Assembly: GCA_963746335.1 (NCBI GenBank)
Contig: CAVVAK010000004.1
Span: 530,825 to 594,824, forward strand
Source: an uncultured Actinomycetota bacterium
GTDB lineage: Bacteria; Actinomycetota; UBA4738; HRBIN12
Direction: 5' to 3'
Length of the DNA: 64,000 nucleotides
Each line of letters opens with the position of its first letter. Within the stretch, counting starts at the first letter, position 1. The position numbers and the translations under genes were made by a program. Below are positions 1 to 37,153 of the stretch, piece after piece. Below the pieces are notes generated by a model, which saw nothing but the letters and a program-made list of their open reading frames with translations, was not told the DNA's origin and did no database searches.

Positions 1-588
1 GTATGTGCCGAAGACCGGGAGGTGGAGCACGCGCCCCAGGAGTACACACTCGTCGAATCGGGGACTCTCGTACTCGTGGCACAGGATGGCGTCGCAGCCG
101 TGTCGGCGCAGCTCTCGAGCCACGGCAACGAGAGGCGTGGCCACGTAGGAGCTCACCGAGGAGACAACCGGCGATGTCAGCTCGAATCGATGTTGTGCAG
201 CACGGACCTTCCGATGTGCCCATGGGCTGGGGAAGAGGCAGACCGGGGCGCCCGTGGGTTCGTGGACGAACCGCTCGATCTCATCCGCTCTCGCCGAGGC
301 GAAGCACATGACGACACGAACGCCGGCGAGCTGCAGAGCCTGCACGTAGTTGAAGAGCCAACCGCCGGACAGCTCCGAACGGAACGTGTCGAGCGAGACA
401 CCGACCTTGTCCAACCAGTCCTCGATCCTGTCCCCCCCGCCGAAGAACGCGAGGGTGGGAGGAGTCGACGTCAGATCGGTCGACCTGACCGGCTCAGGAG
501 AGATGTCGGTCTGCACACGGGACAGCGTAGTGAGCCGGTTCGATGCACGGCTCCTCCACCCCCCAGATCCGACGGGAACAGCCTGCAC
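1..588 (-). CDS. glycosyltransferase (GT-B/GT4-like), N-terminal part; the 3' end runs off the window
   Basis: Absent from the ORF track because there is no stop inside the window. My minus-strand translation from GTG 588 (or GTG 516) reads ...TLAFFGGGDRIEDWLDKVGVSLDTFRSELSGGWLFNYVQALQLAGVRVVMCFAS...YVATPLVAVARELRRHGCDAILCHEYESPRFDECVLLGRVLHLPVFGTY. This looks like the N-terminal Rossmann half of a GT4-type enzyme. The + ORF 22..594 is its antisense shadow. Confidence 0.45.
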   Translation of the reverse strand, partial: MQAVPVGSGGWRSRASNRLTTLSRVQTDISPEPVRSTDLTSTPPTLAFFGGGDRIEDWLDKVGVSLDTFRSELSGGWLFNYVQALQLAGVRVVMCFASARADEIERFVHEPTGAPVCLFPSPWAHRKVRAAQHRFELTSPVVSSVSSYVATPLVAVARELRRHGCDAILCHEYESPRFDECVLLGRVLHLPVFGTY

Positions 589-626
589 CGGTGAGACGTC
601 TCGGTCGCTGACGGGAAGGGGCTCGG

Positions 627-2744
627 CTACTTGGCCTGGGCACTGATCACGTTGGACGGCTGGCTGTGGTTGCCTGCGTGGTCGAACGCGGAGACTCGAT
701 ACCAGTACTGGACCCTGCTCGCGGCGGTGAGGTCACTGTAGGACGTAGATGTGATCGTCGCGATGGACGTGAAGGGTCCAGAAGCGCCGGCGGTGCCCCG
801 CCAGACGATGTAGCCGGCGAGGCCACTTCCGCCAGCATCCGTTGACCCAGACCAGGAGAGGTTCACCTTGCCCTTGGCGGACGCTGCCTTGAGTCCGGAC
901 GGCGCGGTGGGGGACGTCGTATCCGGCGGTGCGGCGGTCGTCGCGGACGCGACCGGCGACGGCGCCGAGTCCCCACCGTCGCCCGTGGCCACCACTCGGT
1001 AGGAGTAGGTCGTACTCGCGGCGAGCCCCGTGTCGCTGTAGGAGGTGACCCCGGCGGCCGTGGTCGCCACCGGGCTCCACGTCGTCGTGTTGGTGGATCG
1101 CTCCACGCGGTACCCCGTCGCCTCTGTCACCGCGCTCCACGAGAGATCCACCCGGCTCGCCGAGACGGCCGTGGCCGTGAGCGAGGCCGGGGCCGGAGGC
1201 GGGGTCGGGGGCGGCGTGTTGGTCGTCGCGGAGGCGACCGGGGAGGGTGGTGAATCTCCCTCACCGTTCGTTGCCACCACCCGGTAGGAGTAGGGCGTAC
1301 TCGCGGCGAGGCCCGTGTCGCTGTAGGAGGTGACCCCCGCGGCCGGGCTCGCGATCGGGTTCCACGTTGCCGTATCGGTCGATCGCTCAACGCGGTACCC
1401 GGTCGCCTCTGTCACCGCGCTCCACGACAGATCCACCTGGCTCGTCGAGACGGCGGTGGCCGAGAGTGTGGCCGGGGCCGGAGGCGGACTCGGGGGCGGC
1501 GTGTTCGGGGTGAACACGACGTCGACCCAATAGTTCGTGTCGTGCTGCGGGGAGGGATCGCCGGGGATCGGGAACCCGTGGCCGGCACGGATCGCCCCGT
1601 TCCCGTTGATCGCGCCCTGGGATGGAAGTCGCAGGGGCGAGTTCACGACTTCGCGATCGCGGAAGTAGCCGACGTCCGCTGCGTAGCGACCCACCGGCGC
1701 GTAGTAAGACGCGATGTAGACCGTGTGTGCCTGCACCGGCACCGGCTGTGCGAACCTGACCTCTTGCCATCCACTCGAGGTTTCGTTGGTGAACGTCGCT
1801 TCACCCAACAACGATCCGGTCGCCGTCCAGAGACTCCCGATGTGAGTGCCGGTGTTGGCCGTGCCCTTGTAGAAGCGGACGCCGTCGATGAAACCGTCCT
1901 TCTCGGACCTGAACTTCACGCCGACCTCGACGGCCGCGGTGGAGGCGACCTGTGGCTGCGCGGGCGTGTCGCCCGGCCCCCAGACGCTGCAGGGACAGCT
2001 TCGGCTCGAGATCGGCGGAGGGACTTCCCGCATGCCGGCGAGCGTCGAGCTCCAGGCGGCCGCCATCTTGTCGTAGCCCCCCTGGTTCGGGTGGATGCCA
2101 TCGATCAGATCGGCTGTCGTGATCACCGGATACATGTCCAGGAACGAAACCTGTCTTCCCGCTGCCGCTTTGGCGGCCACGATCCCAGGGATCTCGGCGT
2201 TGTAGGCACGGGCGTCGGCGTCCAGCGCGGGATCCGCCAGCGGGGTGATCGACGCGACGACGAGTCGAGCGCTGGGTCTCGCATCCGTGATCAGGTCGAT
2301 GAGGGAGCTCAAGCGAGCCGGCGCAGCGGCGAGATCGAACTGCTGCAACACATCATTGGTTCCGATCTGGAGCAGAACGAACTCCGGCCGGAAATTCGTG
2401 ACGGAGGTCGGGGCCAGGGCAGCGAGTTGATCGATGCGGTAGCCCCGGTAACCCTCGTGATCCCGGTCGTAGAGGATCGGAGGCCCTGAGCGCTGAGAGC
2501 CGACCATGTCGGAGCTGTAGCGACCCACGACGAGGTTCTGCACGAGCGGAGGGCGATAGCCACCCCCACCGTTTCCTCCCGTGCCCCACGTGATGCTGTC
2601 CCCGAGTGGCATGATCCGGGTTGGGACCACGAACGAAGCAGCTTGAGCTGGCGAGGCAGCAAGCACGGCGAAAGAGGTCGCGAGCAGGAATACCAGCGTG
2701 GAGCGCGCCAACGCCCGTTGTCCGACCATCTTGATCGACGACAT
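627..2744 (-). CDS. secreted SGNH/GDSL hydrolase - DUF4082-like - 3x fibronectin type III protein
   Basis: Signal-like N-terminus (LVFLLATSFAVLAASPAQA). SGNH blocks are present: MPLGDSITWG, GTNDV, DGIHPN. The central region (GVKFRS..GVRFYKG..IASYYAP..NYWVDVVF) resembles DUF4082. Three C-terminal FN3 modules (LSWSAVTEATGYRVERS twice, LSWSGSTDAGGSGLAGYIVWR). Confidence 0.85.
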   Translation of the reverse strand: MSSIKMVGQRALARSTLVFLLATSFAVLAASPAQAASFVVPTRIMPLGDSITWGTGGNGGGGYRPPLVQNLVVGRYSSDMVGSQRSGPPILYDRDHEGYRGYRIDQLAALAPTSVTNFRPEFVLLQIGTNDVLQQFDLAAAPARLSSLIDLITDARPSARLVVASITPLADPALDADARAYNAEIPGIVAAKAAAGRQVSFLDMYPVITTADLIDGIHPNQGGYDKMAAAWSSTLAGMREVPPPISSRSCPCSVWGPGDTPAQPQVASTAAVEVGVKFRSEKDGFIDGVRFYKGTANTGTHIGSLWTATGSLLGEATFTNETSSGWQEVRFAQPVPVQAHTVYIASYYAPVGRYAADVGYFRDREVVNSPLRLPSQGAINGNGAIRAGHGFPIPGDPSPQHDTNYWVDVVFTPNTPPPSPPPAPATLSATAVSTSQVDLSWSAVTEATGYRVERSTDTATWNPIASPAAGVTSYSDTGLAASTPYSYRVVATNGEGDSPPSPVASATTNTPPPTPPPAPASLTATAVSASRVDLSWSAVTEATGYRVERSTNTTTWSPVATTAAGVTSYSDTGLAASTTYSYRVVATGDGGDSAPSPVASATTAAPPDTTSPTAPSGLKAASAKGKVNLSWSGSTDAGGSGLAGYIVWRGTAGASGPFTSIATITSTSYSDLTAASRVQYWYRVSAFDHAGNHSQPSNVISAQAK
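930..1499 (-). repeat. tandem duplication of a ~285-bp FN3-encoding unit (2 copies) inside the SGNH gene
   Basis: Amino acids 416-510 and 511-605 of the 705-aa protein align residue for residue (PPP(S/T)PPPAPA(T/S)L(S/T)ATAVS..VDLSWSAVTEATGYRVERST..GVTSYSDTGLAAST.YSYRVVAT). The DNA landmark GCGGCGTGTT recurs at 1211 and 1496, a period of 285. Confidence 0.85.
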
Positions 2745-2828
2745 CCCCGCTCCCCGCGAATCCGCGCCCTTCCGGGTGTTACCTTACCGGACATCGGGCA
2801 GATGGCCTACCCCCGATCGGGGGTAAGG

Positions 2829-3725
2829 TCAGGCGCGCGACCTCCTGGGAGCCCGATCTCTCATCCCGGCCAGGATGCCGGGCAGGAGTCCCCGAACCTC
2901 CCCCCGGCCCATCGCCACGAGCTGGGCATTCCCCGTCAGGAACCCTCGCAGCAGGAGCCACGGCGCTCGGACGAAGTCGCGAGCGGCGCGTCGAGCGATG
3001 AAGAGGTCGGCGCGGCGCAAATGCTTGCCGTAGAAGGCCCCCTGTCCGCGAGCGTAGCGCTCGTACAAGGCGGGAAGCATGTCGGTCGCTTGCCATGCGA
3101 GATGGGAGACGATGATGTCGGGGTCGTACACGATGGGCACGCCTGCCCGAAGGGCCCGATACGCCCAATCGTTGTCTTCCCCCGCGAGCCGGAGTGATGG
3201 GTGCTCGTCGAGATGGCCGATGCGCTCCAGCAAGGGGAGCGCGAAGGCCATGTTCGCCGGGAAGAGGACGTCTCGGTCGATCATCGGCCTTCGATAGACG
3301 GCGTGATCGAGCGAGGTCACGATCGTGAGGACGATGCCATCACCCTCAGGTTCGACCCTCCCGGTCAAGATCGAGCCGCTCACCTCCGGCAGACGGGAGG
3401 AGATCCTCTCCAACCAGCCCGTACCGACCCTGCAATCGTCATGGGTCGTCGCGACGAACGGCGTTCGGACACGTTCGAACCCACGGTTGGTGCCGGCGGC
3501 GATACCGGTCTCGCCGGATCGGAGGTGCGTGATCGGGAGGCCTCGGCCCTTCAGCTCATCAACCCACGTTGCCACGTCCGCGTTGGAGCCCTGATCCACG
3601 ATGATCAGTTCCGCCGGCCACATCGTTCCGCTCGCGATCGATCCGAGGCAGCCACGCAAGAGCGGTCGCCCGAGGGTCGGGATGACGACGCTGATGTCCT
3701 CGGCGACCGGCGGGATGTCACCCAT
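2829..3725 (-). CDS. glycosyltransferase family 2
   Basis: ISVVIPTLGRPLLRGCLGSI...IIVDQGS and a later GEDNDW block are typical GT-A/GT2. I chose ATG 3725 (MGDIPPVAEDISVV), which overlaps the upstream stop (3718) by 8 nt. The longer ORF-track N-terminus (to 4001) is Arg/Ser-rich overlap sequence. Confidence 0.8.
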   Translation of the reverse strand: MGDIPPVAEDISVVIPTLGRPLLRGCLGSIASGTMWPAELIIVDQGSNADVATWVDELKGRGLPITHLRSGETGIAAGTNRGFERVRTPFVATTHDDCRVGTGWLERISSRLPEVSGSILTGRVEPEGDGIVLTIVTSLDHAVYRRPMIDRDVLFPANMAFALPLLERIGHLDEHPSLRLAGEDNDWAYRALRAGVPIVYDPDIIVSHLAWQATDMLPALYERYARGQGAFYGKHLRRADLFIARRAARDFVRAPWLLLRGFLTGNAQLVAMGRGEVRGLLPGILAGMRDRAPRRSRA

Positions 3726-5169
3726 CGTTCTCCCATCCGGAGAGGAGATCGGAGAAGGAGAACACGCGATCGACATCCTGGGGATCGGGACACGAGCGAT
3801 CGTCCCAGGGTTCCCCGGCCAGCTTGAAACTGGCCCTTCTCCCGGAGTAGTAGTCGAGGGCATCTCGAGCCGCCCAGTCGTACACGAACTCGTGGAGCGC
3901 GAAGGCACCCCGTGGCGCCGGCTCGACCACCGTGCGTCGGACCCCACACACAGCGACCACCGCGTCGTCGGCGACCTCCTCGGCGATCCGCCTCGACGCA
4001 TAGGCCGTGAAGCTCGCGCTCTCGAGGCGGACCCAGACGCTCAAGCTCAGCGACAAGAGCGCTCCCGCCGCGAAGACTCCCACGACAGCACCCCACGATC
4101 GATAGCTCCGCCGAACCATGAGAGGACCGATCGTCGCGATCATCCCCGAGAGCACGAGCCAGGTGGGGGCGAAGAGCCTCGGGGACCCTTGATGCGGAAC
4201 GTTCAGGAACACCGGGATGTTGATCAGCGCGATGAGCCCGAGACCGGCGAGAAGGGTCCTCCATGCGCGGGTTCGGTCGCTCTCCGACGCCCCCGGCGTT
4301 GACAGGAGCATCGGACCGAGCCAGGAGCCCAGCAGGGCGCCGAGCGCGACGATGATCACGCTGGGAGGGAATGCCCACCGGACAGCCAGCGGGATCGAGT
4401 GGAACCCGAGACCGACAGCCGGGAACTCCACCAGGAATGCGGGGTCGCCGACCGCTCCCGCCACGCGTTCACCGAGCGTCAAGCGGAGCCGCGGATCACC
4501 CCCCGGCCACACGACGAAGGCGACCAGCAGCGCGGCGACCACGGCGATCGTGATGCCGAACGCTCGACGGCGATGTTCGGGCGGGGACGTCAACCACACG
4601 GCCAACGGCAGGGCGAGCAGGACCTGCTCGACCGACAGACCCGCTCCGGCCACGGCGAGAGCTGCCCAGACGTGCCGGCCGTTCCGGTGGAGCCGCAAGG
4701 CGGCGAGCGCCATGAGCAAGCCCAATGGCACGTGCATCGCCGCAGGCCACGATGCAGCCTCGGTACCGAGGGGCTGGAGGAGCCACAGCGCTGCCCCCAG
4801 CGAAGGCCACGCCCCCGGGACTCCGAGGTCCCGCAGCAGCCCTCGGAGGAGCACCGCGATCCCCAACGTCAGCAACAAGGGGATCGCGATCGCCACGCCG
4901 AACGGCAGATGCTGGCAGACCTCCGTCGTGATGACGATCTCCACGAGGTGCGCTCGACGCAGCGCACCGAGTCGTTCGAACGAATCGGCGAGGGTCGCCC
5001 CCAAGCCGGCCCGCTGCGGTTGGAGACAGTTGACGAAGTCGTCCGCGAGCGGCGCCCCGCGAAGGACGACCGGCAGGGAGATGGTCACGAATAGGATGGC
5101 GACGCCGATCAGCACGACCGTCCCGATCCGGATCGATCGTGCTTCCCCTGCCGGCTCGGGCGAGCTCAA
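3718..5169 (-). CDS. polytopic integral membrane protein, function unknown (polymerase or GT-C-like candidate)
   Basis: There are more than 10 hydrophobic segments after IRIGTVVLIGVAILFVTISLPVV. The ORF-track N-terminal 138 aa overlap the upstream GT2 and look non-coding. The proposed TTG start at 5169 forms a TTGA overlap with the stop at 5166. The start is uncertain. Confidence 0.6.
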   Translation of the reverse strand: MSSPEPAGEARSIRIGTVVLIGVAILFVTISLPVVLRGAPLADDFVNCLQPQRAGLGATLADSFERLGALRRAHLVEIVITTEVCQHLPFGVAIAIPLLLTLGIAVLLRGLLRDLGVPGAWPSLGAALWLLQPLGTEAASWPAAMHVPLGLLMALAALRLHRNGRHVWAALAVAGAGLSVEQVLLALPLAVWLTSPPEHRRRAFGITIAVVAALLVAFVVWPGGDPRLRLTLGERVAGAVGDPAFLVEFPAVGLGFHSIPLAVRWAFPPSVIIVALGALLGSWLGPMLLSTPGASESDRTRAWRTLLAGLGLIALINIPVFLNVPHQGSPRLFAPTWLVLSGMIATIGPLMVRRSYRSWGAVVGVFAAGALLSLSLSVWVRLESASFTAYASRRIAEEVADDAVVAVCGVRRTVVEPAPRGAFALHEFVYDWAARDALDYYSGRRASFKLAGEPWDDRSCPDPQDVDRVFSFSDLLSGWENDG

Positions 5170-6128
5170 CTCTCGTCGCACGGGCTCCCCTCGGCTCCCA
5201 CAAGGGCGTCGAGCCAGGCGCGGGCTTCGAGGATCCAGGGGTCGTGCTCGTTCGCCGGGTCGCCGAGCCGGGTCCGTCGGTTGGCGTAACCGGGCATCGA
5301 TGCGGCGACCACCACGCGCCCGATCGAACCGATGTCCCCGGCTCTGATGGCCCGCCCGTAGAGGCGAACCGCATCGGCTCGGCGGTCCTCCTGCAGGGCA
5401 CGCCATGCCGCCCACCGAAGATGCCTGACCCGATCCACGGTGATCCCGTGTCGCTCCGCCACGACATCCAACTGCCGGAGCATCGCGGCCGTGTCTCCGG
5501 CCGCGTTCTGTCGATGGTAGGAGACGGCCACGAGCGGGCTGGAGACCCAGTCTGGTGGCCCCGCGCGCGCCAAGCGGATCCACATGTCCCAGTCTTCGCT
5601 GCTCGTGAGCCCTGGATCGAAGGAGCCCGCTTCCGACAACGTGTCGACATGAACGACGACGCTCGAAGCGCTCCCCGGAACGGAGTTGTGGCGCTCGAGC
5701 TGCCGCACGACCTCGTCCGGAGGCGGTGGGGGACCGCCCGCGAAGATCCTCAGGTTGCCGTCGACCATCACGTCACCGGTGTAGGACCACATCCGTCCGC
5801 CCTTCGCCATGACGTCGAGCTGACGGGTGAGCTTGGTCGGCGCCCAGACATCGTCATCGTCCAGGAACGCGATCCAGCGGCCCTTCGCATCCGCGATGCC
5901 GACGTTGCGGGCTGCGCTCACTCCCCCCGACACAGCTCGCTTCAGGGATCGGATCCGTGGGTCCGAGATGCTCGTCACCATGCGCTCCGTCGCATCCGTC
6001 GATGCGTCGTCGACGATCAGGACCTCGAGATCGACGTCTCGCTGCGCCAACACGCTCCGCACCGCGATCTCGAGCCGCCGGCAACGGTTGCGGGTGGGGA
6101 TCACCACGCTCACGTTCGGTTCGCTCAA
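5166..6128 (-). CDS. glycosyltransferase family 2 (paralogue A of a four-member set)
   Basis: VSVVIPTRNRCRRLEIAVRSVLAQRDVDLEVLIVDDASTDAT, DDDD, SSEDWDMWIRLARAGPPDWV. The TTG start at 6128 gives a TTGA overlap with the stop of the deacetylase gene at 6125. Confidence 0.8.
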   Translation of the reverse strand: MSEPNVSVVIPTRNRCRRLEIAVRSVLAQRDVDLEVLIVDDASTDATERMVTSISDPRIRSLKRAVSGGVSAARNVGIADAKGRWIAFLDDDDVWAPTKLTRQLDVMAKGGRMWSYTGDVMVDGNLRIFAGGPPPPPDEVVRQLERHNSVPGSASSVVVHVDTLSEAGSFDPGLTSSEDWDMWIRLARAGPPDWVSSPLVAVSYHRQNAAGDTAAMLRQLDVVAERHGITVDRVRHLRWAAWRALQEDRRADAVRLYGRAIRAGDIGSIGRVVVAASMPGYANRRTRLGDPANEHDPWILEARAWLDALVGAEGSPCDES

Positions 6129-7069
6129 CCCTGGGGCCCGCGGTTCAGTCTGATGGCGGCGCCCACCAAGAGATCGTCCACCGCGAGGCGACCTGGCTCC
6201 CACCGTCCCAACAGGTAGGGGTCGTCGCGGGGATGCATCGGACGGGGCTGGCCCGTCCACGCGGCCTCATACCCAGCGTCCCGGATCCTGTTCGCGGTTC
6301 GCCGGTCCGCTTTACCGTGGGGATAGGCGAAATGGAGGAGCGGATGACCGACGAGGGTCTCCAGCTCCTTCCGTCCCTGCGCCAACGCCGCATCGAGCGC
6401 CCCATCATCCAGTCGAGTGAGGATCTCGTGGCGCAGGGTGTGGAAGCCGATGGCCATGTCCGCCGCGACCAGCGCCTCGATCCCGGAGCGATCGAGGTTG
6501 GGCGATGGGTCGTGGCTCTCCTCTTCGATGGATCTCTGCAGCGCGGGGTCGTTCTCGCATGCGGTCACGAGCGACTGCGCCCCTTCGCCTCGTCTGCCGA
6601 CGAGACGGCTGACTTCGTCCATCCCGCGAGTATCGATCAGCCGCTCGAGGATCTCGAACCAGTACGGACCGAGACCGACCAACGACCGCCCCGAGAGGAA
6701 GAACGTCGCTGGCGCACCGCGGTCGCGCAGGATCGGCAGGGCGTGATCGACATGGGTGACGAAGTCGTCGTCGAACGTCACGGCGAACCTCGGCCTCGCG
6801 CTCCGGCGCGCCTCCTGAAGGAGTGCTCGCAGCGGAACGATCTCGCCGACCTCTCCGAGCGCATCGAGTTGGCGACCCAAGACGTTCGCGGAGACGGACG
6901 GCACGATCTGGCCCGCGGGGCGTCCGTCCTGGTCGACCCGGTGGTAGACGAGCACCAGGCTCCGACCACGGAGCGCGCCGATCCTTCGAACCACCTCCCC
7001 GACGGGGGATGCTCGGAGGACGCGCTTGACCAAGGCATGGAACCCACCGCCGGCCGGCGGCGGGTTCAT
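6125..7069 (-). CDS. polysaccharide deacetylase (CE4/NodB-like)
   Basis: LVLVYHRV...FAVTFDDDFVTHVDHALPILRDRGAPATFFLSG...HTLRH...AYPHG are NodB-homology motifs. ATGA overlap with the upstream gene at 7066-7069. Confidence 0.85.
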   Translation of the reverse strand: MNPPPAGGGFHALVKRVLRASPVGEVVRRIGALRGRSLVLVYHRVDQDGRPAGQIVPSVSANVLGRQLDALGEVGEIVPLRALLQEARRSARPRFAVTFDDDFVTHVDHALPILRDRGAPATFFLSGRSLVGLGPYWFEILERLIDTRGMDEVSRLVGRRGEGAQSLVTACENDPALQRSIEEESHDPSPNLDRSGIEALVAADMAIGFHTLRHEILTRLDDGALDAALAQGRKELETLVGHPLLHFAYPHGKADRRTANRIRDAGYEAAWTGQPRPMHPRDDPYLLGRWEPGRLAVDDLLVGAAIRLNRGPQG

Positions 7070-8046
7070 GACGCCGGGGAGAGGCCGGCCGTCATCTCGG
7101 AGAGCTCATCGAGCCACACCTGCGCCTCGGCGGCCCATCCCTCGTCCCGCTCCCCGCGGATGAGGCGGAACACCCGGTCGGATCCGACGGCGGGATGCAC
7201 GAGCGCCACGGCCGCCCTGCCTACCGATCGGAGGTCGCCGATCGCGACCGCTCGAGCGTAGTGACGCACGGCGCGGCCACGGTCACCGGCGCGAAGACAG
7301 GTCCAGGCCGCTCGGCGGTGCATCGCAGCGCGGTCCACGGGGATACCGTACCTGGCGGCCAAGAGCTCGGGTTCGTGGATGATGGCGTTCGTCTCGACCG
7401 GGATGTTGCTGTGGTGGAACCGATACGCCACGAGCGGGTGAGGAACGTACGCGGGCGGGCCACTCCGCGCCAGTCTGATCCACATATCCCAGTCCTCCGT
7501 GCGCCGCAGCTCCGGATCGAATGGACCCGCCTCCGCGAGAACGTCGGCGCGCACCATCACGTTGGACGCACCGGTCGGCACAGGGTTGTAGCGGGGTAGG
7601 GCTTCCATGACCTCCTCGGGGCCGGGGGGACGGGAGGCGCTGAGGACCCGCAACGCTCGGTCGACGTCGACGTCGCCCGCGTAGACCCACGTCCGGTCGG
7701 CCGCCGTGACCGCCTCGAGCTGCTGGATCAACTTGTCCGGTGCCCAGAGATCGTCGTCGTCGAGGAACGCGATCCACTCCCCCTTCGCTTCAGCGATCCC
7801 GCGGTTCCTCGAAGCGCTCACGCCGCTCTGTGAAGGCTGCCGAAGCAGTCGTACCTCGCCGACGTCGGAGACGGCCTGAGCCGTGTCATCCGTCGACGCG
7901 TCGTCCACGACGATGACCTCGACGTCCACGCGGCGCTGCTGGAGCGCGGTGAACACGGCGAGCCTCAGCAGCTGTCGCCGGTTCCGGGTCGGAACGACGA
8001 TCGAGACGTCAGTCATCGGCACCAAGGTACTGGGAGGCATTACCAC
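7066..8046 (-). CDS. glycosyltransferase family 2 (paralogue B)
   Basis: VSIVVPTRNRRQLLRLAVFTALQQRRVDVEVIVVDDASTDDT, FLDDDD, RTEDWDMWIRLARSGPPAYVPHPLVAYRFH. The start could instead be ATG 8016 (MTDVSIVV). Confidence 0.85.
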   Translation of the reverse strand: MVMPPSTLVPMTDVSIVVPTRNRRQLLRLAVFTALQQRRVDVEVIVVDDASTDDTAQAVSDVGEVRLLRQPSQSGVSASRNRGIAEAKGEWIAFLDDDDLWAPDKLIQQLEAVTAADRTWVYAGDVDVDRALRVLSASRPPGPEEVMEALPRYNPVPTGASNVMVRADVLAEAGPFDPELRRTEDWDMWIRLARSGPPAYVPHPLVAYRFHHSNIPVETNAIIHEPELLAARYGIPVDRAAMHRRAAWTCLRAGDRGRAVRHYARAVAIGDLRSVGRAAVALVHPAVGSDRVFRLIRGERDEGWAAEAQVWLDELSEMTAGLSPAS

Positions 8047-8063
8047 CTGGGTATCCTCCGGCC

Positions 8064-10943: not shown

Positions 10944-11008
10944 GAGGACCGAGTTGTCTCCTCGCCCGGAGGGGTACGGATGGCTCCGCGCATGCTAACG
11001 GGTCGGCG

Positions 11009-12019: not shown

Positions 12020-12030
12020 CCGGAGGCGTC

Positions 12031-16506: not shown

Positions 16507-16569
16507 GCGCCGCTCGGAACCCTCGGGCGGTGGGACGTCTCGCACGCCACGACGATAATCGAGCCCGCG

Positions 16570-19528: not shown

Positions 19529-19649
19529 CTCGTACGAGCTCCTGGGCGCGAGGGGACTCGGCGCGGGGTTGAGACGGTATCTGAGCGGCGTCGGCTTGCC
19601 CAGACCGGATCGGCGCGGATGCATCGCCGGCCGTTGCTACGGTATCCGC

Positions 19650-20772
19650 GTGCGCATCGCCCAGGTGGTACCCCGCGGCGAGCAGCCATGGTCGGGTGTG
19701 CTGACGGTCATCGTGCACCTCGCGTCGGCACTCGCCCGACGAGGCCATCAGGTGGATGTCTGGCAGTTGCATCGATGGTCGCCCGACGTGTACCGGGAGC
19801 AGCAGCGGCGGCTGGAGGCGGCCGGGGTCGCCCAGGTTCCACTGCTGCCGACGAGGCGGCTCGGCCCCGCAGCGGCGTCGTTGGCGAAGGAGCGCCAGAT
19901 CGACGTGGTCCACCTCCACGGCGCCTTCAATCGGTCCAACACCGCGGTTTCGCGGGCGCTTCGAGGCCCGTACGTGTTCTCCCCGCACAGCGGGTACGAC
20001 CCCGTGTCACTGACCCGCGGACGCGGCAGGAAGCTCGTCTACCGCGTGCTGTTCGAGCGAACGATGCTGATGCGCGCGGCGCTCCGGGTCGCCCTGACGA
20101 ACCAGGAGCTCGGACAGCTGCGCGCCGTGGGCGTGACCGGACCCATCGAGGTGATCCCCAACGGCGTCGAGGCGGCCCCCGACGATCTCGACCGCGACGA
20201 CGTTCCGTCACGAGCTCGGACTGTCGGCAGATCCCTTGCTGGCGGTGTTCGTCGGTCGTCTCGACGTCCACCGCAAGGGACTCGACGTGCTCGTCCGTGC
20301 GATCGCCGCGGCCCCGCCCTGGCATCTGGCCCTCATCGGTCCCCGGTTCCGAGATGTGGATCGCCTCGAGAGGATGATCGCGGACCTGGACACCGGCGAT
20401 CGGGTCCACCTCGTGGGAGAACGCCATGGTCGAAGCTTGCAGGAGAGCGTGGCCGCGGGGGACGTATTCATGTTGTTGTCGCGCTGGGAAGGGCTCCCCA
20501 TGGCACTGCTGGAGGCCCTCAGCCTCGGGAAGCCGGCGATCGTCAGTACGGTCGTCGAGCCATCGGTCGGCGTCGAAGCGGCCGGTGCGGGCTGGGCCGC
20601 GGACGAAGGTGAGGTTGCGCCGCTGCTGCGCGATCTCCAGGATCGAGGGAGAGGCGAACTGGTCCGCCGCGGCGCGGCAGCGCTCGGGCTGTCGAAGAGA
20701 TACGACTGGGATCTCGTTGCGGAACGGTACGAATCCGCGTATGAACGAGCACTCGGATCGGATAGCGGGTGA
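19650..20772 (+). pseudogene. GT4 glycosyltransferase interrupted by one +1 frame break near 20202-20206 (true pseudogene or sequence error)
   Basis: N-terminal half, from GTG 19650: VRIAQVVPRGEQPWSGVLTVIVHLASALARRGHQVDVW. At ...LDRDDV the sense continues one base downstream as FRHELGLSADPLLAVFVGRLDVHRKGLDVL...LLSRWEGLPMALLEALSLGKPAIVS, the classic GT4 C-terminal half. Confidence 0.75.
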
Positions 20773-22348
20773 CGTGGTGAACGAACCGGTGCTCGGCGAG
20801 ACGCCAGACGCCGGTCACGACCCGAGGCAGGAACACGCTTCCGCCGTTGTGTCCCGCTACCACCCGTGTCCGAGATGGCTGGCACTCACGTTGATCGTCA
20901 CCGCCGCTCTCGTCTTCGTCGCCTGGCTCTTCCTGGCCGCAGCGCACATCGACGACCGGTACCAGCTCGATCATGTGTCCGGTGCCCGGATGGCCCTGGC
21001 GCAGTCCTTCGATCGCGGCACGCTCTATCCCGAGCTGTACGACGGTCGGACCTACGGGGGCACCAGGTTCATGCCGCTCCCGATCGTGCTCCACGGTCTG
21101 ACGGCCCGAATGACGGGCGAATACCTCGTCGCAGGCAAACTCCTCGGTTACGCGGCGACGCTCGGTCTCCTTGCGACCATGATGATCCTCCTGCGGCGCG
21201 GCCGGTGCCCGCTCCCCTATGCCCTGATCCTCGCCGCCCTCGTCCTGACGACGTCGACGGGATCCGACGGCTCGATGAACATGCGCGCCGACGTCCTGCC
21301 GCTCGTCCTCCAGGTACTGGCTGTCTGGATCGTCGCGAGCACGCCCCGTCCCGCCGCCACGATGGGCGCGGCCGCTCTGGCTGCCCTTGCCCTCGTTTCG
21401 AAGTTGAGTGCCGTGTGGGCGCCGGTCGCGATCGTCATCTGGCTGCTTCGGCGCGATCGGAAGCGACTGGCGGTGTTCTCGTCCGCGTACGTCGCGATCT
21501 CTGGAGCGCTCCTGCTCCTGTTCATCGGCCTCAGTGACGGACGGTTGGTCGAGAACGTCTTCGGTCTGTCCACATCGGGCATCACGGGCCTCCGATCGAT
21601 CCTGCTAGCGCCGTACCGATCGATGCACCTGCTGGTCGGGGAGGCGACGGCCGCCTGGGCCCTGATCCCGCTCGCCGGTCTCGCCGCGTGGGTCGCGATC
21701 AAGGACCGGCGGGGGTCCATCTATCAGGTGAGCTTGCTCTGTGCGACGGCGGTCCTTCTGATCGTGCTCACCGACGTCGGGACCGGTGGGAACCAGCTGA
21801 TCGACATCGTGGTACTGATCGCGCTCGTGGTCGGGGAGTTCGCGGCTCGGGTGCGGGCCGGCGTGCCGCGGATCGGACCGGCGGCGCCGGTGCTGGGGAC
21901 GGCCATCGGGCTCGTGTTGCTGTGGGCGACCTTCAGCGGGTTCATCGTCACGCTCGCCCCGGAGTTGGAGGCGATGGTCAGCGCCGAGGCGTCGTTCACG
22001 AAGACACCCTTGTCGGGCCTCGCCACGTCCCACACGTCGGTGCTCTCCGAGGATCCCTACGTGCCGATCTCACTCGGTCAGGTGCCCGTCGTGCGCGATC
22101 CGTTCATGCTGCCCAGGTTGGCCCAGCGGCAGCCCGACGCCGTCCCCGACCTCATCGATCGGATCGAGGACCAGGAGTTCGACCTCGTCATCCTGGTCGA
22201 ACCTCTCGAGCCCCTCGATCGCACCTGGTGGAGCGAGCTCGATCTCGGCACTCCGGTCGTGCAGGCGATCTCGCGCGCGTACTCGTACTCGGGGAGGGTC
22301 CAGGGCTATCACGTGTACGAGCCGCGTGAGGAGGGTTCCCTGCCGTGA
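20741..22348 (+). CDS. polytopic membrane protein (GT-C-like candidate)
   Basis: More than 10 TM segments after WLALTLIVTAALVFVAWLFLAAA. An early loop, GARMALAQSFDRGTLYPELYDGRTYGGTRFMPLP, is reminiscent of ArnT/PMT-type first periplasmic loops. Start at ATG 20741, or GTG 20774 just after the GT4 stop. Confidence 0.6.
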   Translation: MNEHSDRIAGDVVNEPVLGETPDAGHDPRQEHASAVVSRYHPCPRWLALTLIVTAALVFVAWLFLAAAHIDDRYQLDHVSGARMALAQSFDRGTLYPELYDGRTYGGTRFMPLPIVLHGLTARMTGEYLVAGKLLGYAATLGLLATMMILLRRGRCPLPYALILAALVLTTSTGSDGSMNMRADVLPLVLQVLAVWIVASTPRPAATMGAAALAALALVSKLSAVWAPVAIVIWLLRRDRKRLAVFSSAYVAISGALLLLFIGLSDGRLVENVFGLSTSGITGLRSILLAPYRSMHLLVGEATAAWALIPLAGLAAWVAIKDRRGSIYQVSLLCATAVLLIVLTDVGTGGNQLIDIVVLIALVVGEFAARVRAGVPRIGPAAPVLGTAIGLVLLWATFSGFIVTLAPELEAMVSAEASFTKTPLSGLATSHTSVLSEDPYVPISLGQVPVVRDPFMLPRLAQRQPDAVPDLIDRIEDQEFDLVILVEPLEPLDRTWWSELDLGTPVVQAISRAYSYSGRVQGYHVYEPREEGSLP

Positions 22349-23631
22349 CGACACGGAACGTCGAGCGTGCCGGGAGTGTTCGGAGCACGCTCGAGCGGAG
22401 GCTCCTCACCATCCTGACGTACCGCCCGGACATCGACGGGCGACTCCTCGTCGTCGCCGTGCTCGGGGTGTACTTCCTCGTGGTTGCCGTTCCGCGGTTC
22501 CTGTGGAACGTCGACGTCTGGCCCCGGCTGGGTGTCCCTTCCGGGCCTTCGCTGTTCTTCGACACGAGGAACCTCACGGCCGCCCTGGAATGTCGGCGAC
22601 TCGGCTTCGATCCATTGGTCCAGAACCCCTGCGACCCCTGGGGGAGGCCGCTCAACTACCCTCGCGTGTGGCTCGCTCTCCGCTGGTTGGGACTGAACCA
22701 GTCCCACACCGTCGCCCTCGCCCTCCTGTTCATCATCGTGTTCCTCGGGTCGATCCTCCTCCTGACGGGACGGGTCAGCCTCGGCAGAGGGAGTCTGGTG
22801 GCTCTGGCCGTCTGTTCCCCGTCCGTCATGTTCGCGATCGAGCGGGCGAACGTGGACATCGTCGTGTTCACCCTGATGGTTCTCGCGGTCCTCGCCTGGC
22901 GGGTCCGCAGCCGCTGGGCGGAGGTCGCAAGTCCGTTCGTCGTCCTCGTCGCCGCGACCGCGAAGATCTACCCGGTCTTCGCGCTCCCCGCCTACCTCTT
23001 CCTGCGCCGGCGCAGCGCCGCGATCGTCGCCGTCGTGTGTGCTGCTCTGTTCGCCCTCTACGCGTTGGTGACGATCGGAGACATCCAGGCGGTGGCGGCG
23101 GTCGCACCACAGGGCGAGCTCCACGCGTTCGGGGCCAGGATCCTTCCGGCTGCCATCTACCACCGGTTCATCCCCGACCGGTGGCAGGGTGGAGCGATCA
23201 CGAAGCAGCTCCTCGTCATCGTCCCCCTGCTCGCGGCCGCCCCACTCGTGTGGTTCCCGGGACGTCGGCGACGCCCTGCGGCCGACCGGGGAGCCGACAC
23301 CCCCACCCGCCTCGCGTTCTTCGCGGGATCGATGATCTTCTTGGGGACCTTCGCGATCGGCAACAACTTCGACTACCGGCTCGTGTTCCTGCTTCTCACA
23401 CTTCCTCAGCTCTTCGATTGGGTCACCGCGGAGCCACGCGATCCTCGTGCGTGGCTGGCCGGCATCGCGACGATCATCGTCGTGTCCCTTCTGTGGATCG
23501 GAGCCCTCTCGGAGCCACTCCTGCTGATGGACGAGTTGGTGACGTGGGCGGCGGTCGGCGTGTTGGTGGCACTCCTCGCAGCGTCCGTACCCTCGGTCCG
23601 CACGATCCTGGCCACGATGCGGCCAGACTGA
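22345..23631 (+). CDS. polytopic membrane protein (DUF2029/GT-C-like candidate)
   Basis: The GTG start forms a GTGA overlap with the upstream stop. About 10 TM segments; AATAKIYPVFALPAYLF resembles the K-(Y/P)-P loop of DUF2029 proteins. Confidence 0.6.
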   Translation: MTTRNVERAGSVRSTLERRLLTILTYRPDIDGRLLVVAVLGVYFLVVAVPRFLWNVDVWPRLGVPSGPSLFFDTRNLTAALECRRLGFDPLVQNPCDPWGRPLNYPRVWLALRWLGLNQSHTVALALLFIIVFLGSILLLTGRVSLGRGSLVALAVCSPSVMFAIERANVDIVVFTLMVLAVLAWRVRSRWAEVASPFVVLVAATAKIYPVFALPAYLFLRRRSAAIVAVVCAALFALYALVTIGDIQAVAAVAPQGELHAFGARILPAAIYHRFIPDRWQGGAITKQLLVIVPLLAAAPLVWFPGRRRRPAADRGADTPTRLAFFAGSMIFLGTFAIGNNFDYRLVFLLLTLPQLFDWVTAEPRDPRAWLAGIATIIVVSLLWIGALSEPLLLMDELVTWAAVGVLVALLAASVPSVRTILATMRPD

Positions 23632-23702
23632 TCCGGCTCGGGGGATCGCCGGGACGCGTATCCTGACCTCCTCGCACGATCGCGGAATCGGGAGCATCGG
23701 AC

Positions 23703-24635
23703 GTGTCCTTCGAGAAGGTGGATCTTCCTCGGAACATCGACGAGCCTGCTCGCGAGGCGTTGCCGGCAAGGGCGTCGGCCGGCGCGATCGTCTCGACGGC
23801 GCGCCCGCGACAGTGGGCGAAGAACGTCCTGGTGTTCGGGGCGCCTGCCACGGGCGGCGTCCTCACCGACCCCGCCGCGCTCGCCTCCACCATCGCCGCC
23901 TTCATCGCCTTCTGCCTCGTCGCGAGCGGCGTGTATTTCTTCAACGACATCGCCGATGCGTCCACGGACCGCCTGCATCCGACGAAGCGGTTCCGCCCGG
24001 TCGCGGCGGGCCAGATGTCCCGCTCGCTGGCGGCCTCGCTCGGTGCCCTGCTGATCGCCGTCGGCTTGGCGGTCGGGGCGTGGGGTGGCGGCGCGGCCCT
24101 GCTCGGCGTCCTGGCGGGCTACGTCGGACTCTCCGTCGCCTACATGCTCGTGCTCCGCGACATCGCCCTGATCGATCTCGCGGCGATCTCTGGTGGATTC
24201 CTGCTCCGCGCGGTCGCGGGCGGTGTCGCCACCGACGTGCCGCTCTCGATGTGGTTCTTGATGGTCGCCGGCTTCGGCTCACTCTTCCTCGCCGCTGGCA
24301 AGCGCCACGCGGAGTACGTGCAGCTCGGCGACGCGCGCGCCGACCATCGCAAGAGCTTGCGGGAGTACTCGGAGCCGTACCTCCGCTACGTCCAGTACGC
24401 CTCCTCGACGGTGGTCATGGCCGCGTACGCGCTGTGGGCATTCGAAGGCGTCGCCGGCGGGAGCCTCTGGTCGGAGCTCTCGATCATCCCGTTCGTGCTC
24501 GGCATCTTCCGCTACGCACTCCTCCTCGAGCACGGCCGAGGGGCTGCTCCGGAAGAGGTCGTCCTCAGCGACGTCCCGCTGTTGGCGCTCGGGGCGGCGT
24601 GGATCGTGCTGGTCGCCACCGGGGTCTACGCGTGA
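23703..24635 (+). CDS. decaprenyl-phosphate 5-phosphoribosyltransferase (UbiA prenyltransferase superfamily, Rv3806c-type)
   Basis: [15 protein letters not shown] and [26 protein letters not shown] match the NDxxDxxxD / HPTKRxRP signature of DPPR synthases. About 8 TM segments. Confidence 0.8.
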
Positions 24636-24681
24636 ACGAGCGTCACGGTCCCTCGTCGGCCGTCACCGCAGGGTAGTCACG

Positions 24682-25617
24682 ATGTCACGGGCGCTCGTCA
24701 CGGGCGGAGCGGGTTTCCTCGGATCCCACCTCTGCGATCGCTTGATCGCCGAGGGCTGGGACGTGGTGTGCGTCGACTCCTTGCTCACGGGACGCGAAGA
24801 CAACATGGGACAGCTTCTCGGACACGAACGGTTCGAGTACATGGCCTACGACGTGACGGAACCGTTCGCGTTCGACGGCGAGCTCGACCGCGTGCTCCAT
24901 CTGGCCTCACCGGCGTCTCCCGTGGACTATCTGCGGTGGCCGATCGAGACCCTGCGGGTGGGCGCCCTCGGAACGCTCCATGCACTGGAGCTCGCCCGGG
25001 CGAAGGAGGCGACCTTCTTCCTCGCCTCGACATCCGAGACGTACGGCGATCCGCTGGTCCACCCGCAACCCGAGACCTACTGGGGCAACGTCAACCCGGT
25101 CGGTCCGCGCAGCGTGTACGACGAGGCCAAGCGATACGCCGAGGCCGCGACCATGGCCTACCACCGCGCACATGGGCTTCCCGTGAGCATCGCGAGGATC
25201 TTCAATACCTACGGCCCGCGGATGCGACGCAAGGATGGTCGGGCCGTGCCCACGTTCATCCAGCAGGCGATGGCCGGGGAGCCGTTGACGGTCCACGGCG
25301 ACGGGACACAGACGCGCTCGCTCTGTTTCGTCGACGACCTCATCGAAGGGCTCTATCGCCTCATCGAGTCCGAGCAGGTCGGTCCCGTGAACGTCGGCAA
25401 CCCCAACGAGATCACCGTCATGCAACTCGCTGAAGCGATCCGGGACGCCGCAGGCAGCTCGTCGCCGATCGTGAACGTGGAGCGGCCCGTCGACGATCCC
25501 GAGATGAGGCGCCCCGACATCTCGTTGGCTCGAGAACTGCTGGGATGGGAACCGGCCGTTCCGCTCGCCGACGGCCTCGCCCGCACGATCGGCTGGGCGA
25601 AGACGGCATGGGCCTGA
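24682..25617 (+). CDS. uxs: UDP-glucuronate decarboxylase (UDP-xylose synthase), SDR family
   Basis: [18 protein letters not shown] (GxxGxxG), [11 protein letters not shown] (YxxxK), NTYGPRM and [14 protein letters not shown] are the UXS-type pattern. 311 aa. Confidence 0.85.
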
Positions 25618-26258
25618 CGTCCAGGCGTGCACCGATGAACGCAGGCAAGGCAGCTCGGAAGGGTGCGTTCGTGCTGATCGTCGGGCCCGACGGCACGGGC
25701 AAATCGACGCTCGCCCAGGGACTGGTGGATGCGACGAGACACGAGTTCCCGCATGTGATCCACATGCATTGGCGCCCCGGCTTGCTGCCTCGACCCGGCG
25801 GTCTCGTCGGGATCGAAGCCGGCGATCCGACCGATCCGCACGCGCGAGAGCCACACGGATCGTTCCTCTCTCTGCTGTTGCTCGCGTACCACTGGCTCGA
25901 CTTCTTCCTCGGGACGTGGCTGCGGATCGTGCCGGCCAGATCACGGGGAGGCTTGGTCGTGATGGAGCGCGGGTGGTTGGACATCGCGGTCGACCCGCGG
26001 AGATATCACCTCGCGCTCCCTCGGAAGCTCGTGGAGCGGCTCGGACGCCTCCTCCCCGCACCGGACCTCGTGGTCGTTCTCTACGCGGAGCCCGAAGCTC
26101 TAACCCGACGGAAGGCAGAGCTTCCCACCCAGGAGCTCTCCAGGCAGATGGCGCGCTGGCGTCAGATCACGTTCCCAGCCCGCACGACCAGGTTGTTCCT
26201 GGATGCCTCCGAGAGTGCGGATCGACTCCTCGAGCAGGTGAGTCGCGCGGTGCTGTAG
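25608..26258 (+). CDS. P-loop NTPase, thymidylate-kinase-like fold; function unknown
   Basis: Walker [20 protein letters not shown]. No other motif recognised. Start at ATG 25608 (10-nt overlap with uxs) or ATG 25635. Confidence 0.55.
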
Positions 26259-33044: not shown

Positions 33045-33084
33045 TTCTTGAGGGGTCACCCGAAGCGCAATGCGACTCGGAACC

Positions 33085-37139: not shown

Positions 37140-37153
37140 TCGTGCTCTCGCCT

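Follow-up and report, generated by a model that had tools for sequence, protein, structure and literature searches.

The systems closest to the locus described here are the pathways that build lipomannan (LM), lipoarabinomannan (LAM), and arabinogalactan (AG) in mycobacteria and corynebacteria (Ppm1, MptA/MptB, the GT87 enzymes PimE/Rv2181, and Rv3806c), the pentofuranosylation system of Kelly et al. 2024 (PPPRS-PRP, MATE, and GT136; PMC11127046), the Gtr/CsbB-YfhO systems (GT-A synthase, GtrA flippase, and GT-C enzyme), haloarchaeal N-glycan assembly on dolichyl monophosphate (AglJ/Agl28, AglS, and AglB; PMC11980604), the Arn pathway, and the wps-1 cluster of Actinoplanes missouriensis, which encodes a putative sulfated exopolysaccharide (PMC13390465). 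The locus occupies position 1 to ~26.3 kb of a 64,000-nucleotide stretch (the window) of contig CAVVAK010000004.1 from an uncultured soil Actinomycetota bacterium (assembly GCA_963746335.1). On balance it is probably a modular biosynthetic locus for an uncharacterised cell-envelope glycan with two-compartment assembly. The product is most likely a sulfated, methylated cell-surface sugar polymer built partly inside and partly outside the membrane; it could take the form of a lipoglycan, of a wall polysaccharide, or of the glycan of a glycoprotein. An earlier reading of the same DNA, made from the letters alone (the sequence-only reading), had not recognised this combination of genes as a described system, and our literature searches likewise found no equivalent characterised cluster.

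Precedents exist for the individual steps. In Halobacterium, a tetrasaccharide linked to dolichyl phosphate (Dol-P) is sulfated by two sulfotransferases and methylated before it is flipped (PMC11980604). A polyprenyl phosphoribose synthase acting with a GT-C enzyme in side-chain pentofuranosylation has been described (PMC11127046), and MtxS makes a lipid donor carrying a modified pentose (PMC12088412). According to a 2026 paper (PMC13390465), cyanobacteria are to date the only bacteria known to make sulfated polysaccharides, and Actinoplanes is emerging as a further case.

Comparison with described systems

With the LM, LAM, and AG pathways the locus shares a UbiA-family decaprenyl-phosphate phosphoribosyltransferase (DPPR synthase), MptA/B- and GT87-type glycosyltransferases (GTs) of the GT-C class, polyprenyl-phosphate sugar synthases of family GT2, and an Actinomycetota host. 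However, the window lacks DprE1/DprE2, an Rv3807c-type phosphatase, Emb/Aft-type arabinosyltransferases, and GlfT, and those pathways have no counterpart of the sulfotransferases, CE4 enzyme, and methyltransferase fusions of the locus. Three of its five polytopic proteins belong to orphan families, and the DPPR synthase module is absent from the loci of distant relatives. The parallel with mycobacterial AG and LAM drawn in the sequence-only reading thus holds for the DPPR synthase and the GT87/MptA-B proteins but is a loose one, lacking DprE1/DprE2. The system of Kelly et al. shares a synthase dependent on phosphoribosyl pyrophosphate (PRPP) encoded beside a GT-C protein, an adjacency that is kept for g20 and g19 of the locus down to 60% amino acid identity and whose default product would be a ribofuranose side chain. 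In contrast to that system, g20 has no fused phosphatase domain, and neither a phosphatase nor a MATE flippase is encoded nearby; its GT-C enzyme is GT136 and g19 is GT87-like by Pfam, and the short-chain dehydrogenase/reductase (SDR) g21 beside g20 matches a true UDP-glucuronate decarboxylase (UXS; 1.4e-102 to human UXS1), an ORF13-type lipid-sugar epimerase being the less likely identity.

The g13-g14 pair resembles the Gtr/CsbB-YfhO systems in coupling a GT2 with C-terminal transmembrane (TM) segments translationally to a polytopic partner, but the locus is without GtrA, and g14 represents an undescribed family with a predicted cytoplasmic S-adenosylmethionine (SAM) methyltransferase domain in 25 of its 51 members. 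The haloarchaeal pathway offers an AglJ-like GT2, soluble GT-A enzymes, two sulfotransferases, a methyltransferase, a cytoplasmic lipid-linked glycan, and an outside GT-C enzyme that uses a lipid-phosphate sugar, all of which have likely parallels in the locus. The locus is, however, bacterial, without an AglB/PglB-type signature or an identified flippase, and has many more GT-C-like proteins. The Arn pathway shares a logic of UXS/ArnA-like decarboxylase, ArnC-like GT2, ArnD-like cytoplasmic CE4 enzyme, and GT-C transferase, although no aminotransferase or formyltransferase is present in 1-27 kb and lipid A cannot be the target in a monoderm actinobacterium, which is what the affiliation of the host suggests. 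Similarity of the locus GT2s to ArnC is very weak (E 1e-3, NCBIfam). The wps-1 cluster is likewise actinobacterial and has two sulfotransferases and a methyltransferase, but it is Wzx/Wzy/Wzz-dependent, whereas the locus lacks these components and would rely on GT-C proteins.

Organization and limits of the locus

Genes were called from third-position GC content, from Pfam, NCBIfam, and PDB searches, and from gene calls on near-identical and related contigs. The block from 1 to 26.3 kb contains 22 genes (g01-g22) with intergenic gaps of at most ~285 bp; the gene list of the sequence-only reading was recovered exactly or to within a few codons, and its description of the block as almost gap-free is accurate. 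Its limits were less well chosen, since 1-26258 is not a complete locus: the window edge cuts through the leftmost gene, g01 (1-588, minus strand), which relatives keep inside their clusters, indicating that the locus is truncated on the left and continues beyond the window, and both g22, which ends at 26258, and the SGNH protein g02 are not conserved with the block. The GC content is 66-69% over 1-26 kb and drops to 62-64% over 26-42 kb. For comparison, 80 genome loci were fetched with the g14 family as anchor and all window proteins were mapped onto them; adjacency of g13 and g14 was counted over 82 loci, and further metagenome contigs were gathered with g19 (related loci are numbered L001 and upwards).

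Scans with Pfam and NCBIfam detected no Wzx, Wzy, ABC, GtrA, MATE, or phosphoglycosyl-transferase domain in 1-27.5 kb, in agreement with the earlier statement that no Wzx, Wzy, or ABC exporter is encoded here, and with gaps of at most ~285 bp there is no room for a small flippase of the GtrA family. No HAD protein was found in 1-27.5 kb, and a scan of genes over all 64 kb of the window revealed neither a DprE1/FAD-oxidase or DprE2 nor a PAP2 phosphatase. These last three were also not found adjoining the DPPR synthase in L001, L087, and L088, and could be encoded elsewhere in the genome. A scan for promoters and terminators gave no signal above shuffled expectation, a megablast search of 13.3-24.6 kb against plasmids gave no match, and an exact-protein look-up of g20 returned no record. 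ENA contig ERZ25039588:contig_31991 (L002) is 99.36% identical to the window with 24 gap columns over 21.9 kb and itself has many broken genes, which suggests long-read assembly indels in the window, in L002, or in both.

Lipid-phosphate sugar synthases and UXS

Three proteins of the locus are predicted to make lipid-phosphate sugar donors. The product of g13 (13308-14414, minus strand) is an AglJ/DPM1-like GT2 of the polyprenyl-phosphate hexose synthase type. AglJ is the haloarchaeal dolichyl-phosphate hexose synthase, and its family (TIGR04182) is the best NCBIfam match to g13, with an E value of 5.1e-58 and a score of 196.8 bits against a cut-off of 325. Further matches are to Dol-P-hexose transferase and PpgS in NCBIfam and to Dol-P-Man synthase in the PDB (1.2e-7). 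The GT2 domain is followed by two C-terminal TM segments (residues 244-262 and 278-296), the arrangement of a GtrB-like protein, as which the sequence-only reading had listed it, and g13 overlaps g14 by 8 bp. The second synthase, g16 (18020-19528, minus strand), is a DPM1/AglJ/PpgS-like GT2 fused at its C terminus to a SAM methyltransferase (Pfam Methyltransf_23 7.2e-15; Glycos_transf_2 3.5e-6, 27.5 bits against a cut-off of 23.3). The NCBIfam matches of its GT2 half are weak (AglJ 1.1e-9, PpgS 7.4e-9, and Dol-P-hexose transferase 2.7e-8), and the protein is kept at 64-96% amino acid identity in L001, L084, L086, and L088. The two methyltransferase domains listed in the sequence-only reading are both present, not as separate proteins but as C-terminal fusions on g14 and g16.

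The third, g20 (23703-24635, plus strand), is a UbiA-family protein of 310 amino acids with seven hydrophobic segments and the UbiA domain only. It matches NCBIfam NF008978 at 2.7e-100 with 335.5 bits against an equivalog cut-off of 207, and residues 21-308 align with the solved decaprenyl-phosphate phosphoribosyltransferase 8j8j at 3.3e-65; judged from these matches it is a bona fide DPPR synthase, as had been proposed for this gene. Downstream of it, g21 (24682-25617, plus strand) encodes an extended SDR whose residues 3-305 match human UXS1 (4gll) at 1.4e-102, the next family being GalE at 6e-37, and by this measure it is a true UXS. Assignment of g21 as DprE2 or as an ORF13-type epimerase was set aside in view of the UXS match at 1e-102. 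The pentose derived from DPPR is more likely ribofuranose than arabinofuranose, since DprE1/E2 are found neither in the window nor beside the DPPR synthases of relatives.

GT-C status of the five polytopic proteins

The sequence-only reading counted four or five polytopic proteins and described them as GT-C-like. Five are present, and the description holds firmly for g15 and g19, which carry GT87 signals, and with structural support for g04, whose predicted model matches GT-C folds; for the g14 N-domain and g18 the sequence signals are weak but consistent and remain suggestive.

The product of g15 (16570-18048, plus strand) is an MptA/MptB/GT87-type GT-C protein by its profile matches, with a Pfam GT87 match of 4.3e-6 (27.1 bits against a cut-off of 25), an NCBIfam match to alpha-1,6-mannopyranosyltransferase A of 6.3e-12 that is under its cut-off, and orthologues annotated with PF26314 (MptA_B_family, precomputed). 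A PDB sequence search with g15 gave no match. The GT87-family assignment of g19 (22345-23631, plus strand) comes from a Pfam match of 1.3e-7 (32.1 bits against 25). GT-C enzymes have acidic residues directly after TM1, in the first outer loop, and the invariant acidic residues are D114 in g15 and D73/D89/D97 in g19.

No Pfam or NCBIfam match was found for the orphan protein g04 (3718-5169, minus strand) or for 40 of its relatives, and its family is small and isolated: a search of 1.84 billion entries recovered 108 representatives at E <= 1e-3. With 40 homologues as input, AlphaFold2 gives a confident model (pLDDT 89.4, pTM 0.90) that predicts a GT-C fold. Nearly all of its top Foldseek matches in the PDB are GT-C enzymes (PglB, ALG12, STT3, AglB, PimE, and Pmt4), at a probability of 0.92-1.00, TM 0.30-0.45, and E >= 1.3e-3, the exception being one low-probability transporter; matches to transporters have a probability below 0.35 and TM ~0.1. 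A fold search had been proposed with the sequence-only reading as a check on whether these proteins are transporters, and for g04 its outcome favors GT-C. The protein has nine hydrophobic segments, within the 7-13 TM helices expected of a GT-C fold, an invariant D43-D44 pair directly after TM1, and ~100 residues outside the membrane; no WWDYG motif of the oligosaccharyltransferase type was seen among its conserved positions.

In g14 (14407-16506, minus strand) a polytopic GT-C-like domain (residues ~1-465) is followed by a C-terminal SAM methyltransferase domain (~480-699; Pfam Methyltransf_23 8.7e-13), and the protein matches the NCBIfam LA_3751/LA_3752 putative glycosyltransferase family at 3.4e-10. 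Weak matches recur among the 51 family members to ALG3 (17/51), YfhO (5/51), and PMT_2 (3/51), with no repeated match to any transporter or polymerase family. A full-length fold search with its AlphaFold2 model (pLDDT 87) returned only methyltransferases in the top 50, and the family profile searched against PDB sequences likewise gave methyltransferase matches only. Residue D25 after TM1 is nearly invariant in the family, and the arginines that precede TM1 in its consensus point to a cytoplasmic N terminus by the positive-inside rule; the C-terminal methyltransferase domain needs SAM and would therefore also be cytoplasmic. Two homologues of ~880 amino acids (P0045 and P0049) have a GT2 domain fused to the g14-type membrane domain, so that a GT2 or the methyltransferase, the latter in about half of the family, are alternative fusions around one membrane core.

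The orphan protein g18 (20741-22348, plus strand) is probably also a GT-C protein. It has no Pfam match itself, but 15 of 40 family members show weak PMT_2 matches (best 1.5e-4), NCBI lists one homologue as a "glycosyltransferase family 87 protein", and H69, D72, and D77 after TM1 are invariant. Profile alignments with hhalign among the five polytopic families all gave probabilities below 4%, even for g15 against g19, both Pfam GT87; with alignments this shallow and that pair also failing, these negatives are uninformative and are not evidence against relatedness.

Soluble transferases, sulfotransferases, and deacetylase

Five soluble GT2s are encoded by g03 (2829-3725, minus; Pfam Glycos_transf_2 1.2e-12), g05 (5166-6128, minus; Glycos_transf_2 1e-28), g07 (7066-8046, minus; Pfam 5.9e-29), g09 (8972-9943, minus; Pfam 5.7e-33), and g11 (11069-12019, plus; Pfam 3e-27). 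The gene g03 also stands beside g04 in L001, L004, L005, L011, and L088. The closest PDB relatives of g07 are PglI (5.8e-21) and chondroitin synthase (9.1e-19), and the top NCBIfam matches of g09 are TuaG-like and EpsD-like, both below cut-off. Two sulfotransferases are encoded by g08 (8064-8987, plus; Pfam Sulfotransfer_3 1.8e-29 and Sulfotransfer_1 1.3e-8), which has no signal peptide, and by g10 (9945-10943, minus; Sulfotransfer_3 7.2e-23), with orthologues in L001, L004, L005, L009, and L011. The CE4 polysaccharide deacetylase g06 (6125-7069, minus; Polysacc_deac_1 4.9e-18) is kept with g05/g07 in all related clusters; it has no signal peptide, TM segment, or hydrophobic N terminus and is predicted to be a cytoplasmic enzyme.

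The single GT4 of the sequence-only reading, g17 (19569-20772, plus), is present but split by a 1-bp insertion at ~20197-20200. Its N domain lies in the frame of 19569-20612 (Glyco_transf_4 2e-22) and its C domain in another frame, 20236-20772 (Glyco_trans_1_4 1.8e-19). Alignment with L001 and L002 reveals an extra G at ~20197-20200, and removal of one base gives a 373-amino acid protein identical to that of L002 at 372 of 373 positions. The indel may be an assembly error rather than the mark of a true pseudogene, because the window differs by 24 gap columns from L002, whose genes are often broken.

Conservation and modular structure

The closest genome match (94% at the amino acid level), named "uncultured Actinomycetota bacterium MFD02840.bin.1.414", has g03-g11 and g13-g21 in the same order, without the acyltransferase-3 (AT3) gene, the SGNH gene, and g22. 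Elsewhere the modules are co-conserved at 45-70% amino acid identity in other Actinomycetota metagenome-assembled genomes (MAGs) and metagenome contigs, and partly in Vicinamibacterales/Acidobacteriota. Two distant Actinomycetota MAGs (L004 and L005; 42-68%) keep g01, g03, g04, g05 or g07, g06, the sulfotransferases, g09, and g11, together with g13, g14, g15, and the GT4, and L004 additionally keeps g18 and part of g16; g19-g21 were not found within 10 kb in either. The Vicinamibacterales (Acidobacteriota) MAG L011 keeps g03-g06, g10, g11, the g14 membrane domain, and g18. Between the conserved genes of L011, at 3453-12209, lie genes for three GDSL/SGNH proteins, which echo the SGNH protein g02 (627-2744), and for an additional polytopic protein that is PMT_2-like.

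At least four modules can be distinguished in this mosaic block: A (g03-g07), B (g13-g15), C (g16-g20), and D (g08-g11). In L088, g03-g07 are joined directly to g16-g20 and g13-g15 are absent from that stretch, and in L084 genes of the g16-g20 type are joined to g13-g14. The recurrence of the modules, reshuffled, in relatives indicates that the block is not a chance juxtaposition, which the neighborhood comparison proposed with the sequence-only reading was meant to decide; the genes are co-conserved, but the 26 kb do not hold together as a single fixed unit.

The GT87-DPPR synthase pair (g19-g20) is confined to a narrower lineage. Where contigs gathered with g19 are long enough, g16-g18 lie upstream, usually with the GT4 g17, down to 60% amino acid identity, and g20 follows directly downstream of g19 wherever the contig extends (the window, L001, L083, L086, L087, and L088). 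Only the closest relatives have UXS beside this pair; in L088 the DPPR synthase is followed by a sulfotransferase, not UXS. In L087 the place of UXS is taken by an EvdMO1/WbdD-like sugar O-methyltransferase (2227-3177), which lies downstream on the strand opposite to the DPPR synthase, and methyltransferases recur around the DPPR synthase module in differing forms.

Members of the g14 family adjoin a g13-like GT2 in 46 of the 82 loci, in two arrangements: both genes run in one direction in this lineage, and 40 loci of the Solirubrobacterales/Thermoleophilia type have them divergent and ~100-160 bp apart. In these 40 divergent loci (L013-L057 and similar, from Solirubrobacterales, Thermoleophilia, and "uncultured Actinomycetes") a g14 membrane domain without methyltransferase is found with a g13-like GT2 (~30% amino acid identity); this two-gene unit is widespread, and no function has been described for it. 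Among cultured bacteria, Paraconexibacter sp. AEG42_29 (L059) carries a g14-type membrane protein.

Proposed assembly and alternative readings

UDP-sugars, PRPP, 3'-phosphoadenosine 5'-phosphosulfate (PAPS), and SAM are cytoplasmic, and export signals are absent from the sulfotransferases, the deacetylase, the soluble GTs, and both methyltransferase domains. Sulfation, methylation, and de-N-acetylation would thus have to take place on lipid-linked donors or intermediates inside the cell, and the extracytoplasmic decoration with sulfate and methyl groups proposed in the sequence-only reading has to be given up. From the domain identities, the fusions, the fold of g04, and the synteny described above, we infer an order of steps together with likely substrates, acceptor, and donor methylation. 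Inside the cell, the five soluble GT2s and the GT4 would extend a lipid-linked glycan, which the CE4 enzyme g06 would de-N-acetylate and the PAPS-type sulfotransferases g08 and g10 would sulfate. Lipid-phosphate monosaccharide donors would come from g13, g16, and g20: a hexose donor from g13, a donor possibly O-methylated by its own fused methyltransferase from g16, and a phosphoribose donor made from PRPP by g20, which on dephosphorylation would yield ribofuranose. The methyltransferase domains of g16 and g14 most plausibly O-methylate lipid-linked sugars before export. After flipping, up to five GT-C-type enzymes (g04, g14, g15, g18, and g19) would transfer sugars outside, with g20 and either g19 or possibly g18 forming a pentofuranose side-chain module, by default for ribofuranose. 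In this strain only, AT3, perhaps with the secreted SGNH protein, would add acyl groups outside. The g13 product may be methylated by the cytoplasmic domain of g14 and then used outside by its GT-C domain, a scheme suggested by the g14 fusion, the 8-bp g13/g14 overlap, and the GT2 fusions of relatives; the frequent adjacency of the g14 family to a GT2 (46/82), together with these fusions, is the pattern expected of a donor synthase and its transferase.

Several points weigh against two-compartment assembly directed by this locus. The fold matches of g04 are moderate (TM 0.42-0.45, E >= 1.3e-3), the fold search with g14 is dominated by its methyltransferase domain so that the membrane domain is masked, the GT4 g17 is frameshifted in this assembly, and the relatives that carry the locus are all uncultured. 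A flippase, a primer, a DPPR phosphatase, DprE1/E2, an LCP ligase, and a PAPS-synthesis gene are not in the locus, so that several steps would need genes outside it.

The best family match of g13, AglJ (5.1e-58), also allows an en-bloc pathway of the haloarchaeal type, in which g13 primes a polyprenyl-monophosphate oligosaccharide rather than making a monosaccharide donor, the soluble GT2s and the GT4 extend it, and de-N-acetylation, sulfation, and methylation occur on the lipid before flipping; an oligosaccharyltransferase-like GT-C protein (g04 or g14) would then transfer the glycan to protein or wall while other GT-C proteins add final sugars outside in an AglS-like manner. This reading would explain the missing phosphoglycosyl-transferase primer. 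It is also in keeping with the oligosaccharyltransferases (PglB, STT3, and AglB) that make up most of the top fold matches of g04, with the weakly AglG-like character of g09, and with the Halobacterium tetrasaccharide that is assembled, sulfated, and methylated on Dol-P before flipping (PMC11980604). We nonetheless consider it unlikely, as g13 stays under the AglJ cut-off (196.8 against 325 bits), g04 has just ~100 residues outside the membrane with no WWDYG among its conserved positions, and pairs or fusions of g14 with g13-like proteins also occur where no soluble GT2 of the window was detected nearby, which a donor synthase and its transferase fit better. A more far-reaching form is speculative and has little probability: the conserved core of the locus would be the bacterial equivalent of dolichyl-monophosphate assembly in haloarchaea, with chemistry resembling that of glycosaminoglycans, and would combine an AglJ-like primer, cytoplasmic extension, N-deacetylation, sulfation, and methylation, and delivery by undescribed GT-C families. 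If true, one of these families would be fused to the methyltransferase that modifies its own substrate, and uncultured soil Actinomycetota and Acidobacteriota would share a sulfated surface glycan.

The reshuffling of modules raises the question of whether the genes serve one pathway at all. They could instead form an island of independent neighboring systems, in which g13-g15 might make an LM-like mannan, g03-g11 a sulfated polymer built by GT2s, and g16-g20 pentofuranose side chains. The joining of g03-g07 to g16-g20 in L088 without g13-g15 there, the lack of g19-g21 within 10 kb in L004 and L005, the g13/g14 pair standing alone in Thermoleophilia, and the second, lower-GC Wzy-type cluster that abuts at 27.5-42 kb are all consistent with such an island. 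However, the orphan set g03-g07, g10/g11, g14, and g18 travels jointly in Actinomycetota and Vicinamibacterales, window genes overlap or abut across module borders, and no module has its own primer or exporter, which makes independent systems rather improbable. The absence of an encoded exporter or flippase can also be taken to mean that among the orphan polytopic proteins (g04, the g14 N-domain, and g18) at least one is the missing flippase, polymerase, or ligase, Wzy/WaaL-like or other, which would leave fewer lipid-linked monosaccharide transfers than the sequence-only reading proposed. The sequence signals of g14 and g18 are weak, and one g04 homologue has a marginal Wzy_C match (E 0.15). 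Against this, the structural matches of the g04 model are to GT-C enzymes instead of MFS or other transporters, the acidic residues after TM1 are kept in the g04, g14, and g18 families (D25 of g14 nearly invariantly), and the repeated weak matches of the g14 and g18 families go to GT-C families only, leaving this the least probable of the alternatives and very unlikely. We therefore retain two-compartment assembly with GT-C transfer outside as the preferred reading.

Parts of the locus are of known kinds, namely the DPPR synthase, the GT87/MptA-B proteins, the Gtr-like GT2/GT-C pair, the Arn-like logic, and AT3. New are the three orphan GT-C-like families without Pfam models, which are candidate new GT-C families, and the fusions of a methyltransferase to a GT-C protein and to a GT2 polyprenyl-phosphate sugar synthase, for which literature searches found no description and which suggest that lipid-linked sugars are methylated before export. 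Also new are a GT87-type enzyme paired with a DPPR synthase without DprE1/E2, phosphatase, or MATE flippase, a pairing that would bring another GT-C family and another phylum into the recently defined pathway for pentofuranose side chains, and the association with sulfotransferases across two phyla. The biology of the locus is plausible and widespread in soil metagenomes, and a two-sulfotransferase locus in abundant uncultured soil Actinomycetota and Acidobacteriota would point to a widespread unseen class of sulfated envelope glycans, with possible effects on soil aggregation, tolerance of desiccation, phage adsorption, and metal binding.

Accessory genes and flanking regions

The remaining genes of the block are less widely kept. 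The product of g01 is a conserved protein without Pfam or NCBIfam match, whose orthologues (50-58% amino acid identity) adjoin GT2 genes inside the clusters of L004, L005, and L088. A secreted SGNH/GDSL hydrolase with DUF4082 and two fn3 domains is predicted from g02 (627-2744, minus; Lipase_GDSL_2 2.3e-19, DUF4082 2.6e-45, and fn3 4.1e-22), which has a signal-peptide-like N terminus, and an AT3 with 10 TM segments from g12 (12031-13311, minus; Acyl_transf_3 1.8e-26), with a weak SucT-like match (2.6e-10) far under cut-off. Both g02 and g12 are limited to this strain and its 99%-identical contig, and among the mapped loci g12 was found only in the window and L002. The same distribution applies to g22 (25671-26258, plus), a small P-loop protein with weak AAA/P-loop and dTMP-kinase-like matches that is probably outside the system; its identification as an APS kinase or ABC ATPase was rejected, the P-loop signal being bare and the gene not conserved. 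Just beyond the end proposed for the locus in the sequence-only reading, g23 (26321-27571, plus) encodes a secreted right-handed beta-helix protein (Beta_helix 5e-18) with a signal-peptide-like N terminus, a possible glycan hydrolase or lyase.

At 27500-42200 lies a second glycan cluster with a GC content of 62-64%, lower than the 66-69% of the locus. Its genes encode a Wzy_C/O-antigen-ligase-like protein (35667-37139), a weak Polysacc_synt fragment (33732-34511), GT4s (31136-32254, 34677-35552, and 37272-38408), an FkbM methyltransferase (29997-30854), an APH/kinase-like protein (38492-39433), a DegT aminotransferase (39842-40990), and a GNAT/FemAB-like protein (41022-42185). Its coding potential is poor, with frameshifts or horizontal acquisition possible, and its composition resembles Wzx/Wzy clusters such as Actinoplanes wps-1. 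That it serves as the exporter for the locus is unlikely, given its lower GC content and its absence beside the locus in the 94% relative.

Further downstream, 44406-46568 encodes an adenylate/guanylate cyclase domain fused to beta-propeller-like repeats (DUF5074/DUF6923), followed by a CHRD-domain protein. In a row at 49175-53212 stand hemQ (chlorite-dismutase family), protoporphyrinogen/coproporphyrinogen oxidase, ferrochelatase, and uroporphyrinogen decarboxylase; a hemQ-type set belongs to the coproporphyrin-dependent heme branch typical of monoderm bacteria. The flanking genes also include SerRS. The last stretch, 58550-63998, contains bactofilin, DUF4446, a weakly lysyl-oxidase-like protein, tRNA-Leu, FhaA, an FHA protein, and a PP2C phosphatase that runs off the window. 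We take the FhaA-FHA-PP2C stretch to be the start of the conserved actinobacterial fhaA-fhaB-pstP cell-division cluster, and it supports an Actinomycetota chromosome as the source of the window.

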